64,000 nt of DNA from NCBI RefSeq assembly GCF_055900595.2, contig NZ_CM148325.1; one strand, 5' to 3'. Under the pieces are notes generated by a model, which searched no databases, was not told the DNA's origin, and saw nothing but the letters and a program-made list of their open reading frames with translations. Below, in pieces: positions 952 to 8,272 of the stretch (its first letter is position 1; every line of letters starts with the position of its first letter). Made by a program: the position numbers and the translations under genes.

Positions 952-1251
952 TTAACCAGTCTGTTTCCCTGATTGGGGTGACGTTGTTTCGACGTGCCCA
1001 CAGTGTGCGAGAGCCGGGGCTATTTGCCCGTGTTCTGGGTCGATGCGGTCATACATAAACCAATTCTGATACTTATGAAAACGGGGGTGACCAAATATCT
1101 TAATTGCAGATTCCAATGTCATCTTAGATTTGTCACGCTCATAGCCGTGATAGGTTGTGTAATTAAGCCCTACTAAATCAACAAATTGCTGTTTTGTTAG
1201 CCTTTCCGAATCTCGCATGATCGCTAACTTTTCACCTTGAGTATTTGACAT
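952..1251 (-). CDS. C: Immunity repressor, P2 C-like
   Basis: 99 aa, MSNTQGEKLAIMRDSERLTKQQFVDLVG...QIAPALAHCGHVETTSPQSGKQTG; resembles recalled P2 C repressor; sits between int and the early operon as in P2. Confidence 0.8.
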   Translation of the reverse strand: MSNTQGEKLAIMRDSERLTKQQFVDLVGLNYTTYHGYERDKSKMTLESAIKIFGHPRFHKYQNWFMYDRIDPEHGQIAPALAHCGHVETTSPQSGKQTG

Positions 1252-3050: not shown

Positions 3051-3266
3051 ATGAGTAAACCACTAACCAGCATTGAGCGAAAAATTGTTTTTATGAATGT
3101 GGCAGGCGTGCAGTTCGAAGTGGATAAGCAGGTCATCGTCTCCGAAACGAGATGCCCGGCAGCAGGTGAGCAATGCACCTACCTGACACTGGCAGACGGC
3201 ACGCAAATAACCGCCGTCACCGACACCATTCGCGAGCTTGTGATTATCAGAGGGGTTAAACGATGA
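3051..3266 (+). CDS. Hypothetical protein (71 aa)
   Basis: ORF track; AGGAG Shine-Dalgarno upstream (aaggagcagcgaATG). Confidence 0.5.
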   Translation: MSKPLTSIERKIVFMNVAGVQFEVDKQVIVSETRCPAAGEQCTYLTLADGTQITAVTDTIRELVIIRGVKR

Positions 3267-3475
3267 CCAGCAAATACACCACCAACGCACGCAAGCCAGG
3301 CAAGGAGGCACGTCATCACATTGCCGTTCTGCGCAATCTCATCATGTGCGAAATCGACGACTTTGTGGCGGGACTGGGCCAGCCGGGCGAGCCAGCAACA
3401 CCGGGCGAAATACACAAAGAACTACGCCGCCGCATAGAAAGCGCGGTGGATTACGTCATGAACCCGAACGACTGA
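3263..3475 (+). CDS. Hypothetical protein (70 aa)
   Basis: ORF track; ATGA overlap with the upstream ORF. Confidence 0.45.
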   Translation: MTSKYTTNARKPGKEARHHIAVLRNLIMCEIDDFVAGLGQPGEPATPGEIHKELRRRIESAVDYVMNPND

Positions 3476-3515
3476 CCAGAACGCGAGCGCGCGCCGGATG
3501 ACGCACGCATAACGC

Positions 3516-4001
3516 TTAGCGGGAAGCGCCAACCGTAAGGCTGGCAATGATTTTTTCGGAGAGTGAGAGAGATTCGCGATGATTAAGACCAAGAGCAGCA
3601 CAAGCTTTATTGCGCGCCGGGTTGTCCATGCATTCAAGCACCGGAGAGTCCTGCTTCTCAATTTCCACCAGTCGCGCCAGCAACACCTCCGTGCTGAGAC
3701 CGTCGCTTTCAGTAATCAGGACGTTATAGCGATGAGCCTGTTCTTTTGCAGCCTGAGCGCGTCGCCCAAATTTCCAGGCGATATTGCAGCCACTAAGCAC
3801 AGCCACGATACCACCCAGCAACCAACTGAAATTGCTGTCTGCAAACACAGTAGCCCCAGACGTAAGGATGACAGCATTAATCACCGTATCCATACGGCGG
3901 TTAAACACCTCCGAAATATGTTCAAGCCAGTAACTGTTCCAGAGACGAAACATGACCTCGTGTCGCCGTTCGGCATGATTTTCAGTTGGTTGTCTGTTCA
4001 T
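3516..4001 (-). CDS. Two-transmembrane protein (161 aa), opposite strand to the early operon; candidate superinfection-exclusion or abortive-infection effector
   Basis: ATG at 3999-4001 with GAGGAGGG Shine-Dalgarno upstream; two hydrophobic segments (VINAVILTSGATVFA and FSWLLGGIVAVLSGCNIAW) followed by a charged, helix-prone C-terminus. No confident family match. Confidence 0.55.
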   Translation of the reverse strand: MNRQPTENHAERRHEVMFRLWNSYWLEHISEVFNRRMDTVINAVILTSGATVFADSNFSWLLGGIVAVLSGCNIAWKFGRRAQAAKEQAHRYNVLITESDGLSTEVLLARLVEIEKQDSPVLECMDNPARNKACAALGLNHRESLSLSEKIIASLTVGASR

Positions 4002-4244
4002 TGCGGTTTAACCCTCCTCATCATCTCGCCCCTGCCCTTTTTCAGGCGCGGGAGCCGGTTGCCGTGGCACATGAAATTTATCGCTATCAGACATTTATTT
4101 TTTCCCGTGTGTTGTTGAACAAACTGCCCGCACAGTTTTGACGGAACGGCGGGCGCTTCAAGCGTAACACACCCTTCTTTTCCGGTTGAAGGCGAAAAAA
4201 ACCGGACAGCTACCCGACACAAACCAGACCAGCGGAGAACTGCC

Positions 4245-4799
4245 ATGTACGCACTTAAACCTATGGGGATACCAGGCAAAGCCCCGGCGCATGTGAAAGC
4301 CTGGACACAGCAGGAAGATGATTTGCTGATCACCCTGTACCCGCAGCACACAGCACGAGATATCGCCGGACGTCTGGGGCGCAGCTACGAAGGAGTTCGC
4401 GGCCGCATTTCTCGTCTGCGTGAACAGGGCAGGATTGGCATCAAGCAGCAAAGACTAAGCGATGAGATGATCGCCACGCTCATCAGGAACCGCCACACCA
4501 GGTCCCTCAAGGAACTGGCACACATGGCGAAAGTTTCGACACGCACGGTAACCAACCGATTGAGGGCGCTGGGCTACAGCCTGATCAAATGCGGAGAACT
4601 GCATAAAAACGCCGTCTACAGCGACTGCATCGTTGAGATTATCAACCAGTTACGCGACGAGCAGGGCCTGACGTTCAGGGAAATCGCGCAGCGCCTTAGC
4701 CACGAACTACAGCCGAACCCCACCCCGGCACTTGCTCGCCATCTCTACTGGCGCCGCACAGCAGCCGACGCCGTACTCCGCGAACTGTTACCAGATTGA
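4245..4799 (+). CDS. DNA-binding protein with repeated helix-turn-helix-like segments (184 aa), early/replication operon
   Basis: ORF track; three HTH-like segments (TARDIAGRLGRSYEGVRGRISRLR, SLKELAHMAKVSTRTVTNRLRALG, TFREIAQRLSHE). Confidence 0.5.
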   Translation: MYALKPMGIPGKAPAHVKAWTQQEDDLLITLYPQHTARDIAGRLGRSYEGVRGRISRLREQGRIGIKQQRLSDEMIATLIRNRHTRSLKELAHMAKVSTRTVTNRLRALGYSLIKCGELHKNAVYSDCIVEIINQLRDEQGLTFREIAQRLSHELQPNPTPALARHLYWRRTAADAVLRELLPD

Positions 4800-5782: not shown

Positions 5783-8272
5783 ATGGAGTTCGTCAGAGAC
5801 TGGCAAAAACCGCGCCCCGCTATCGGGCGCGAAGGCTTACCCGTACCTGAAACCGCACTGGATACCATCCTGAAGTGTTACCGCGCAGACGAAGAGCGCG
5901 CACTGCACGCTGAAGAGCAGGGTCATCCGCTTGCGGGCACAACCATCGGTAACGCGATCGACAAGTGGGAAGGCGCACAGGAGCGCCAGGAAGAGGCCAT
6001 CACGCTCACACAGGAAGCGAGAAGACACCCGCCCACCCTTATTGAGGAAACCCTCAAAGAGCTGGACACCCTGCCCAAGTGGTTGAGGCTGCCGCTGATT
6101 AAGCACCTGAACTTTTTAAGGCGCAAACAGGAGGACGAACAACAGAAAGGCAAGCGCGGCAAGGACACCCGCAAATATGAGCGCTTCCTGAAAAACGGCA
6201 TCCCCGCACGTCTTCGCCGTATTCGTGAGATTAACGCTCGCTTTGCACCGTTAAGTTTTCAGGCCGCTGCCATGCGCGAGAGTCTGGAAGAACTGATCAC
6301 ACTGCCGAACCTGAGCCGTGAACGCATCCAGAAAATAGCCGTACTGCTTGCCAGCGCCGTTAAAATGCATCTTGCCGACGCAATGGACAAGGCCCGCGAA
6401 ATAACAGGGAACGACAAAGACGACAACCTGAACAACTGGCTGATTGCCTACCAGTATATTGGTCGCCGTGTCCTGAAGCTGGGGATCACCCCACCATACT
6501 GGAGCGCCCTTGAACTCCGCCCCGACCGCAGAAGCCCCCCGGACGTGACACTGGTTCCGGGCGCTGTTTTGCGCCTGAACGACGCCGAATGGTGGAATAA
6601 AAAACTTCGCCAGATGCACGACGTCTGGCGTGAGGAACTTTTACGTGCAGCGGGCCTTGTATCCCGCCAGACCTCCGTTTATGTGAGCCGTGAAGCGCTG
6701 GCAGACTTCCGCGAAAAACAGGCCCGTACCCGCGATTTTCTCAAAGCGCACGACGTGGAGAACGAAGACGGCGAACGCATCAGTCTGGAAGATATCTACT
6801 ACGCCAGTACATCCAACCCGCATAACCGCCGCAACGAGATGATGGCGTGCGTTAAGGGAATGGAGCTTATCGCACAGGAACGCGGCGACGTGGCCTTCTT
6901 CGTCACGGTCACAGCCCCGTCTCGTTTTCACAGCGTCACCGACGCAGGCACGCTGAACCCGAAATACAAAGGCGCAACCGTAAAGGACGCCAGCGACTAT
7001 CTGGTTTATAACTTCTTCGCCTCCGCCCGCAAACTCATCAAAAAAGAGAAGCGGGGCTGGTACGGCATTCGCACCGTGGAGCCTCACCACGACGGCACGC
7101 CCCACTGGCACATGCTGGTATTCACAAGCCCTGAGAACGAAGAGCGCATCACGGAAATCATGTGCAATGCCGCCATTCGCGAAGACCGGGCAGAGCTGGG
7201 CGACGACATCACCCCGCGCTTCAAGTGCGAGAAGATAGATCCCGAAAAAGGCACGCCAACCAGCTACATCGCCACCTACATAGGCAAAGGCATTGACGCC
7301 GCTGCATTCGGCGACACGGATCCAAAAACAGGTAAACCGCCCGTTGACCACGAAAGCGGAAAACCTATGGCGGACACCGTGGAAAACGCCGTCGCCTGGG
7401 CGCGCCTGCATCGCATTCGCCAGTTCCAGTTCTTTGGCCTCCCTTCCCGTCAGGTGTGGCGTGAGTTCCGCCGCCTTGCCGGACAAATGGCACGCAACCC
7501 GAAGGGGCCGCAGGCACTGACCAACCCCAAAGCCGACGCCCTCCTTGTTGCAGCCGATACGGGGTGTTTTGCCAGCTACATCATGCATCAGGGCGGTGTG
7601 CTCATTCCCCGTAGTGAATATCTGGCCCGCACAGCCTACGTCACCGCAGAAGAGCCGAACAATTACAGCGAATTCCCCGAGCGCATTTACGGTATCCGCA
7701 TGCCGGAACTGGGGGAGGACTTCACGTTATGCACCCACCCGGAAGAGTGGAAAATCGTCAGAAAGGAACCGGAACCAGACAACCGCACGGGCGAGGGTTT
7801 TGACCTTCAGGGCGGCCCCGCCGCCCCTTGGACTCGTGGCAATAACTGTCACCCTGACGAAAAAACAACCAACAACAGCACACAAACAGAACAGTCAGAG
7901 TGGGCAAAACTGCCCCCCTTACCCCCATCGTCGGACGGTTTTGTGAGCTGGTTTAAGTCGCTTAAGAGGCCGGACAGGAAAAAACTACAAAGATTGCTCA
8001 AAAAACGCACCGAAGAGAGTCGCCAGAACGCCAGCGGCGGCACCGACACACCCACCGACACCATTAACCTGGGCGTTGTGCTGCCGGAACTGCCGGAAAT
8101 CGTGCAAGTCCGCCGCGATCTGGAAGCGCTGGGCGCGGACTTCCCCGAAGCAATGGCCCATTCCGTCTTTATGGGTGCCCGCGTTCGTCTGGGTGACGGT
8201 CGCACCGTTCACCGCGACGAGCAGACCGGGCGCATCACCGTCACCAGTCTGCAACCGGAGGCGAAACCATGA
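5783..8272 (+). CDS. A: Replication initiation endonuclease, P2 gpA family
   Basis: 829-aa ORF at the position of P2 gene A (between the early genes and the portal); large rolling-circle-type replication protein. Confidence 0.75.
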   Translation: MEFVRDWQKPRPAIGREGLPVPETALDTILKCYRADEERALHAEEQGHPLAGTTIGNAIDKWEGAQERQEEAITLTQEARRHPPTLIEETLKELDTLPKWLRLPLIKHLNFLRRKQEDEQQKGKRGKDTRKYERFLKNGIPARLRRIREINARFAPLSFQAAAMRESLEELITLPNLSRERIQKIAVLLASAVKMHLADAMDKAREITGNDKDDNLNNWLIAYQYIGRRVLKLGITPPYWSALELRPDRRSPPDVTLVPGAVLRLNDAEWWNKKLRQMHDVWREELLRAAGLVSRQTSVYVSREALADFREKQARTRDFLKAHDVENEDGERISLEDIYYASTSNPHNRRNEMMACVKGMELIAQERGDVAFFVTVTAPSRFHSVTDAGTLNPKYKGATVKDASDYLVYNFFASARKLIKKEKRGWYGIRTVEPHHDGTPHWHMLVFTSPENEERITEIMCNAAIREDRAELGDDITPRFKCEKIDPEKGTPTSYIATYIGKGIDAAAFGDTDPKTGKPPVDHESGKPMADTVENAVAWARLHRIRQFQFFGLPSRQVWREFRRLAGQMARNPKGPQALTNPKADALLVAADTGCFASYIMHQGGVLIPRSEYLARTAYVTAEEPNNYSEFPERIYGIRMPELGEDFTLCTHPEEWKIVRKEPEPDNRTGEGFDLQGGPAAPWTRGNNCHPDEKTTNNSTQTEQSEWAKLPPLPPSSDGFVSWFKSLKRPDRKKLQRLLKKRTEESRQNASGGTDTPTDTINLGVVLPELPEIVQVRRDLEALGADFPEAMAHSVFMGARVRLGDGRTVHRDEQTGRITVTSLQPEAKP

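Follow-up and report, generated by a model that had tools for sequence, protein, structure and literature searches.

A stand-alone SLATT-like gene and a proline-rich micro-ORF in a candidate antisense moron cassette of a P2-like Escherichia coli prophage

The 64,000-nucleotide stretch of contig NZ_CM148325.1 (NCBI RefSeq assembly GCF_055900595.2) analysed here, and called the window throughout, holds a P2-like (Peduoviridae-type) Escherichia coli prophage with integrase, C repressor and gpA genes, and within the plus-strand early operon of this prophage lies, at 3516-4001 (-), a gene for a 161-residue protein resembling the SLATT (SMODS- and SLOG-associating two-transmembrane, 2TM) effectors. 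The joint best explanation for the observations presented below is that positions 3516-4218 (-) constitute an autonomous moron cassette, antisense in the early (Pe-type) operon, whose membrane protein would act as an exclusion or abortive infection (Abi) effector, a combined reading that we regard as evenly balanced between right and wrong. Read in its own direction, the cassette presents a terminator-like hairpin, a predicted extended -10 element, a 5' stem-loop, a micro-ORF (open reading frame) of 28 codons and, finally, the SLATT-like gene.

The minus-strand gene and its SLATT kinship

The gene, as called from its ORF and sequence, starts with ATG and is preceded at 4012-4019 (-) by the Shine-Dalgarno (SD) sequence GAGGAGGG, 10 nucleotides before the start codon; the 161-residue minus-strand gene with a good SD and start that a sequence-only reading of the window had proposed is thus confirmed from the sequence. 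Substitutions were compared by codon position among the window, a 79%-identical E. coli lineage (L002) and the Yersinia phage vB_YenM_42.18 (L003), and their counts at positions 1/2/3 of the minus frame (45/29/88, 61/40/89 and 71/46/101 in the comparisons among these loci) point to purifying selection acting on that frame, a pattern by which 3516-4001 (-) is a genuine gene. The overlapping ORF of 179 residues on the plus strand, 3579-4118 (+), lies in register with it, and one may consider that this would be the true early-operon gene, or else that the region is a non-coding spacer, given that the plus-strand ORF is the longer of the two, that it is open in many lineages and that the record of vB_YenM_42.18 annotates the plus-type strand. 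Such an explanation is nevertheless extremely improbable, because the substitutions sit at minus position 3, equivalent to plus position 1, which makes the plus ORF a shadow ORF rather than a gene, its precise register being the classic situation; moreover, 207 diverse homologues of the minus-strand protein were retrieved, some of them in lambdoid contexts, its predicted fold is confident, and RefSeq annotation calls the minus strand as the gene. In the Yersinia phage record, a coding sequence (CDS) of 221 residues, vBYenM4218_008, is annotated on the early-operon strand across the SLATT-like gene (L003 5812-6477), and from the substitution pattern it is probably a strand mis-annotation.

Regarding its family, the SLATT assignment appears largely right at the superfamily and fold level, the protein belonging to a divergent family that falls beneath the thresholds of the curated models, which we take to be SLATT_1-6, SLATT_fungal and DUF4231 in Pfam and NF033632, that is SLATT_4, in NCBIfam. 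Remote homology is indicated by recurrent, in-register best matches reached through intermediate members of the family: SLATT_4 is the top model, out of 18,950 in NCBIfam, for 17 of the 31 members scanned, its matches always aligning protein positions ~13-105 with profile positions ~4-105 (N-terminal helix, both transmembrane helices and the next helix), with best E-values of 8.6e-7 and 1.2e-5, and the members that match it score E-values of 1e-10 to 1e-12 against the profile of the query family. Weak matches to SLATT_1 and SLATT_fungal are also found among family members, and a PADLOC scan of 10 distant members returned two weak ones, to a reverse transcriptase (RT)-associated SLATT protein (1.5e-4) and to a CBASS 2TM effector (1.3e-4). 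The best score of a curated SLATT profile over the 31 members was 28.9 bits, under its threshold. Thus, the SLATT-type resemblance anticipated by the sequence-only reading stands for superfamily and fold, through the recurrence of SLATT_4 and the fold matches, and does not extend to a curated threshold or to the presence of a SMODS or SLOG partner.

Fold comparisons were carried out with the predicted structure described below. Foldseek searches of AFDB50 gave many matches named SLATT or DUF4231 (TM-score 0.84-0.93), most of them being proteins of the same family named automatically, and one of them a 77%-identical Salmonella protein; the SLATT label is not new, as UniProt has already assigned this name automatically to close homologues. 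Similarity to independently annotated SLATT proteins was found in BFVD, where the top three matches, and four of the best five, are SLATT-annotated giant-virus proteins sharing 9-14% identity with the query (E 4e-3 to 1e-1, TMq 0.55-0.67). Among solved structures the model matched generic helical bundles only, and a search with P0118 for bona fide SLATT sequences returned P0118 alone. The Pfam family ATP-synt_I, which appeared (0.003) in a scan of the query and 113 relatives, was judged a match of transmembrane composition and set aside.

The family itself is broad. An exhaustive profile search retrieved 207 cluster representatives at E<=1e-3, almost all of them stand-alone proteins of 150-180 residues, and a word-indexed search found just 24 close homologues, all enterobacterial. 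The identical 161-residue protein is present on 524 contigs and matches PHROG 6315, a family of unknown function (E=5.6e-51). When the region was compared with the phage collection, megablast gave no match and phage homologues were recovered by tblastn only.

Two adjacent hydrophobic segments are found in the protein, at ~39-55 and ~58-77, and across 113 family members the mean number of K+R is ~2.0 on each flank and 0.19 in the loop of 5-6 residues, a distribution from which an N-in/C-in hairpin is therefore expected. The AlphaFold2 model, built on the 113-sequence alignment, is all-helical (predicted local distance difference test, pLDDT, 94; predicted template-modelling score, pTM, 0.87) and exhibits helices at 9-52, leading from the cytoplasm into the first transmembrane helix (TM1), at 59-76 (TM2) and at 78-101, followed by three others, so that four predicted cytoplasmic helices come after TM2. 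This model implies a membrane helical hairpin with both termini, and the helical C-terminal domain, on the cytoplasmic side, and in model and charge pattern alike the SLATT architecture, two adjacent transmembrane helices between cytoplasmic ones, is recognised. The two adjacent hydrophobic helices and the helical C-terminus foreseen from the sequence were hence recovered, the former from the segments and their charge bias with a hydrophobicity that is borderline in the window protein; the short hydrophilic N-terminus was not, its place being taken in the model by a ~30-residue helix that runs into TM1.

The proline-rich micro-ORF and the cassette head

Immediately upstream of the SLATT-like gene lies the micro-ORF MSDSDKFHVPRQPAPAPEKGQGRDDEEG (28 codons, 4008-4094 (-)), whose stop is 6 nucleotides before the SLATT-like ATG and whose last codons (E26 E27 G28) overlap the SLATT-like SD, the same placement inside the micro-ORF end being observed in homologous loci. 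The gene had been described as a lone one with all its neighbours on the other strand, which is correct for the annotated early-operon neighbours, all on the plus strand, but not for this unannotated minus-strand micro-ORF adjoining it; the gene is not really lone, because the micro-ORF had been missed. RefSeq leaves it unannotated, also in identical prophages, and PHROGs contains no family for the micropeptides.

Equivalent micro-ORFs of 27-40 residues occur in 12 P2-like lineages, mostly with a clear SD of their own (AAGGAG/GGAGGA), and the distance from their stop to the SLATT-like start is 3-16 nucleotides across loci. They share a core, D-x-F-H-[VIQ]-[PL]-[RH]-x-P-[AE]-P, followed by an acidic tail, with 0 to 11 residues between core and stop. 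In pairwise comparisons of the 11 distinct sequences, differences at codon positions 1/2/3 amount to 208/135/465, and at the invariant Pro and Ala positions all synonymous codons are in use; this excess at third positions, together with the synonymous codon usage, thus argues that the micropeptide itself is under selection. Related Pro-rich micro-ORFs precede distant SLATT-like genes as well, including those of lambdoid clades only ~25% identical. Portions of these peptides read EKFHRVHKPAPAP in L042, ERHVPLRQKPPVPPKPP in the P0035 clade, QVPYRPAPAPRPP in the P0101 clade (14/14 loci), NFHVLPRPAPAPKP in L173, GVPPKNPPRP in L008 and PIRPTPPPP in a Providencia phage, where the micro-ORF is annotated as a 38-residue CDS, and a GC-rich distant member contains a decaproline run. 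In the E. coli TUM1886 lineage (L002 ~4263-4360; also L016-L018) a frameshifted remnant is observed, KFHEPGYPALCAD up to its stop, and in the L002 lineage the start of the intact SLATT-like gene is overlapped by a new upstream ORF in another frame.

The leader mRNA fold is not significant (z=-0.59), and a switch sequestering the SD is therefore unsupported. A leader based on EF-P/polyproline stalling was considered as a general rule and proved unsupported too, given that consecutive prolines are absent from the window peptide and from several clades; taken together, the lack of significant leader structure and of a diprolyl motif in the window peptide make a pure arrest-peptide model not favoured. 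An AlphaFold model of a peptide-linker-SLATT fusion reached pLDDT ~77 at peptide residues 11-20 and ~50 in the linker, per-block values that may be taken as a hint of peptide docking.

Further upstream, the 135 nucleotides before the micro-ORF were aligned for 13 lineages (mean identity 56%) and the invariant columns G-T-G-x-T-A-x-x-x-T were found, corresponding in the window to a predicted extended -10 element, TGTGTTACGCT (TRTG-n-TAnnnT, 4161-4171 (-)), with a predicted start near 4154. In the 13 lineages TGnTAnnnT is placed 65-80 nucleotides upstream of the micro-ORF and adjoins a terminator-like hairpin; taken alone, the -10 motif shows no enrichment in the window. At the predicted 5' end of the transcript lies a stem-loop, GCCCGC...GCGGGC (4126-4154 (-)), and an equivalent hairpin with a differing stem sequence was recognised, by eye and in single-sequence folds, in most of the 13 lineages, having been lost by deletion in L019/L021 and having arms that are only roughly placed in L022/L023.

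The cassette head proper, 4173-4218 (-), consists of a hairpin with a T-run detected by scanning at 4201-4218 and of a second hairpin, CCTTC/GAAGG, at 4173-4192, whose CCGG loop can pair with an upstream CCGG. In most lineages the upstream element takes the form GTGCCGGG-N-CCAYG-CCCGGC-G-CRTGG-TTTT, and compensatory variants of its short stem include CCATG/CATGG, CCCTG/CAGGG, CCACG/CGTGG, ACGCG/CGCGT and GCCGT/ACGGC, in addition to the CCTTC/GAAGG of the window. The more stable alternative pairing GCCGGG/CCCGGC covaries as well (GCCGGA/TCCGGC, GCCTG/CAGGC). As both stems share nucleotides, they are to be seen as alternative pairings; an H-type pseudoknot, which was also contemplated, was dropped on account of these shared nucleotides and of the missing connecting loop. 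Hairpins and compensatory changes were recognised by inspection and in folds of single sequences, and are weaker evidence for that reason; the hairpins were essentially not recovered when RNAalifold was run on the MAFFT leader alignment, and Rfam gave no match within 3300-4500.

Occurrences of the element were located in the window (4161-4218 (-)), in L013 (5804-5850) and in L020, L062/L063, L047 and L004. Between one P2-like and one lambdoid contig the element, a candidate insulating terminator, attenuator or operator, is ~95% identical, the SLATT proteins of the two being only ~25% identical. The possibility that the head is specific to SLATT cassettes was rejected, since a scan of IMG/VR finds it before many unrelated small genes, namely a 73-residue zinc-ribbon (CxxC...CxxC) gene and genes of 60, 69, 84 and 170 residues. 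In two P2-like contigs, L170 (3864-3889, -) and L178 (6744-6769, +), head and predicted TTTTGTGGTAT promoter precede a 60-residue gene that is placed antisense between cox and DUF4761, which gives the early operon a second site of antisense insertion. These observations suggest, at the level of sequence, that small-gene cassettes sharing this head form a wider family; the SLATT pair would thus be one cargo of an antisense cassette family. The IMG/VR loci with the head before unrelated genes are L075, L077, L078, L080, L093, L119, L158, L160, L166, L167 and L175, and the leaders of these unrelated-cargo loci carry repeated CCCCAACAG/CCACAGTCAA motifs.

Distribution and prophage setting

Of 5426 complete E. 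coli genomes, 33 carry the SLATT-like gene and 1431 a P2-like gpA match. The carriers form two sub-lineages of ~99% and ~69% DNA identity, inside which the gene is syntenic, and within the sub-lineage of the window it is always present. Its position shifts elsewhere: in the IMG/VR P2-like contig L013 it comes directly after cox, beside the C repressor, and in the Yersinia phage L003 it is found before gpB. Distant members (21-33% identity) belong to lambdoid prophages, where they are placed beside a cI-type repressor or within the early-left operon, usually as the lone gene on their strand and, where they adjoin the repressor, usually facing against the early-left genes. Examples come from Providencia phage PSTNGR2lys, a prophage carrying a diversity-generating retroelement (DGR) and the P0035 clade, and a Snodgrassella prophage has its copy on the same strand as the repressor. 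This patchy distribution, combined with a shifting early-operon position in P2-like and lambdoid phages, amounts to moron behaviour, and the moron character put forward by the sequence-only reading gains from it and from the layout of the minus-strand cassette, apparently autonomous and provided with a conserved promoter-like element. A conserved core gene of known regulatory role, which that reading had named as the outcome that would speak against it, is not what was encountered, the gene being syntenic within its sub-lineage and having no known regulatory role.

Partners of the SMODS/CD-NTase, SLOG, TIR or RT type were looked for in the window and in the Snodgrassella, metagenomic and other prophage contexts, and none was found. 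The retroelement mentioned above (RVT_1 + bAvd; L008 1458-3195) sits beside the integrase of the lambdoid contig that carries P0106; it is 3.5 kb away from the SLATT-like gene, is not an adjacent partner and appears unrelated to it.

The prophage region of the window is 99.9% identical to the prophage beside glsA in E. coli CM2. Its C-type repressor (99 residues) is encoded at 952-1251 (-), and the plus-strand early operon that follows comprises a Cox-like gene, DUF4761, several small ORFs, a 184-residue D5-like regulator and the gpA replication endonuclease (829 residues, 5783-8272 (+)). Within this operon the SLATT-like gene is the sole annotated minus-strand gene, lying between a 70-residue ORF and the 184-residue regulator. 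On the plus strand, a terminator-like hairpin with a T-run is found at 3958-3978 (+), antisense to the 5' region of the SLATT-like gene; if functional, it would stop early-operon transcription ahead of the regulator and gpA genes. Downstream of gpA, the CM2 prophage (L001 10918-12410) harbours a DUF6516 gene with a regulator and a minus-strand RelE/HTH toxin-antitoxin (TA) pair. The window departs from CM2 after ~8695, and both pairs may be absent from it.

Proposed function, rival explanations and known systems

SLATT proteins are considered predicted, unproven pore-forming effectors in CBASS, UG17/DRT10, AbiA and RADAR, and by analogy with them the protein described here is probably a membrane effector acting against competing phages. 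In the lysogen, with Pe repressed, the cassette would be transcribed from its own predicted promoter, and during lytic growth convergent transcription from Pe would silence it. Once made, the SLATT-like protein would permeabilise or depolarise the inner membrane, as predicted for other SLATT effectors, whereby other phages would be excluded or their infection aborted; the micropeptide would serve either as a labile gate or antidote of the protein or, by coupling translation, to fix the dose at which the protein is made. A bolder and tentative proposal, possible rather than probable in our estimation, is that micropeptide and stand-alone SLATT-like protein together form an undescribed two-gene defence module of Abi/TA-like type, in which the peptide would gate or dose the pore without any nucleotide-signalling partner, and that the head would be the hallmark of a larger, so far unrecognised group of antisense moron cassettes, which would insert at several early-operon sites in P2-like and lambdoid phages and carry interchangeable small cargo.

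Several observations weigh against the autonomous effector cassette. Regarding its transcription, a standard two-hexamer scan of 3200-4400 found no sigma-70 promoter, the extended -10 element being a prediction drawn from cross-lineage invariance only. Regarding the protein, PADLOC-DB v2 gave 0 families at E<=1 for the 161-residue sequence, Pfam returned nothing significant and no SLATT match, and NCBIfam SLATT_4 (NF033632) reached E=0.099 and 12.5 bits for a cut-off of 55; furthermore, the hydrophobicity of the window protein is borderline, with a top Kyte-Doolittle value of 1.56 over 19 residues and crude Hessa sums of +2.3 to +2.9 kcal/mol for its segments. Both the phage-defence role and the membrane activity of the stand-alone family are features that we infer by analogy. 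Regarding the micro-ORF, the E. coli sub-lineage of L002 and L016-L018 keeps an intact SLATT-like gene behind a frameshifted micro-ORF, and two clades (L026-L040) are devoid of it, the peptide being therefore no indispensable antidote; neither are diprolyl stall motifs universal, as the window peptide and several clades contain no consecutive prolines.

Part of the same evidence could be accommodated without abortive infection. The protein might provide superinfection exclusion or serve the cycle of the phage itself, by blocking DNA entry as SieA and T4 Imm do or by modulating the membrane at induction, with the micro-ORF working as a purely cis-acting leader whose coupling limits SLATT translation. 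Exclusion genes are typically found at such a site, by immunity and early regions and antisense to lytic operons. Translational coupling is favoured by the short distance from the micro-ORF stop to the SLATT start and by the SD contained in the last codons, and the persistence of lineages devoid of an intact micro-ORF also agrees with this explanation. On the contrary, a leader acting only in cis would not be expected to keep the core F-H-V-P-x-R-x-P-A-P in its amino acids with synonymous change left free, the variable core-to-stop spacing is not what a pure spacer or an arrest peptide would lead one to expect, and the leader shows no significant structure that would sequester the SD; as for exclusion, scanning the query and its 113 relatives with Pfam detected no SieB, Imm or Rex family. 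On balance we consider this explanation unlikely.

A TA-like addiction module, in which a labile micropeptide antidote and a stable SLATT membrane toxin would stabilise the prophage with no direct anti-phage role, is less likely still. It would account for the order of the two genes, a small upstream partner followed by a tightly coupled larger gene as in type II TA operons, and it agrees with the toxicity inferred for SLATT proteins in UG17 and with the raised pLDDT that the fusion model assigns to the peptide core. Against it stand the several lineages that keep the SLATT-like gene with a disrupted or absent micro-ORF, the lack of any match in PADLOC or TA families, and a docking signal that consists of per-block pLDDT alone.

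To our knowledge, SLATT proteins have so far been described solely as predicted effectors that work with a sensor or enzyme (CD-NTase, SLOG, reverse transcriptase); in the literature searched, no account was found of the stand-alone prophage family, its micropeptide or the cassette head. A stand-alone SLATT protein with a tiny Pro-rich peptide as its only conserved companion would represent a minimal, genetically tractable system, in which membrane effect, silencing and trigger could each be addressed. For annotation, the locus illustrates (i) micro-genes missing from the annotation of well-sequenced E. coli prophages, (ii) a probable strand mis-annotation in a phage record, and (iii) accessory cassettes concealed antisense in early operons, outside the mapped P2-like defence hotspots.

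Genes controlled by leaders or small ORFs, such as SecM-SecA, MgtL/MgtP, TnaC and toiL-topAI, and likewise the layout of type II TA operons, offer a first term of comparison. As in leader-peptide systems, a short ORF that includes the SD of the main gene ends just ahead of it, by a few nucleotides, and the micro-ORF is Pro-rich, with diprolyl motifs in several clades; it differs from them in having no conserved known arrest motif, a variable core-to-stop distance, a window peptide with no consecutive prolines and no significant SD-sequestering structure. Lambda RexB, lambda/P22 SieB, P22 SieA and T4 Imm are phage membrane proteins of exclusion or Abi type, the prophage ones encoded near immunity regions. 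The protein presented here resembles them as a small predicted inner-membrane protein of a temperate phage, encoded by the repressor or early region and plausibly on in the lysogen and off during lytic growth; on the contrary, no sequence or fold kinship with them was detected, the Pfam scans mentioned above having given no SieB or Rex family, and its micropeptide partner has no counterpart among them.

The lysogenic-conversion morons of P2 are old, tin and fun/Z, and the SLATT-like gene is, like these and like the genes of P2/P4 hotspots, a patchy accessory gene of P2-like prophages with a candidate anti-phage function. Defence hotspots of P2 and P4 have been mapped (Rousset et al. 2022, PMC9122126). 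The cassette differs from them in lying inside the early operon, antisense and at a position that varies between lineages, and in being of a system type not included in PADLOC.

The closest comparison is with the SLATT effectors of type I CBASS, UG17/DRT10 and AbiA and with those acting as RADAR accessories. Size (~150-190 residues), the succession of N-terminal helix, two-helix hairpin and next helix in the SLATT_4 register, fold matches and carriage on mobile elements are features in common; on the contrary, the family described here scores below the curated thresholds, its C-terminal ~55 residues are family-specific, and it is stand-alone, pairing instead with a Pro-rich micro-ORF in the early and immunity regions of temperate phages.

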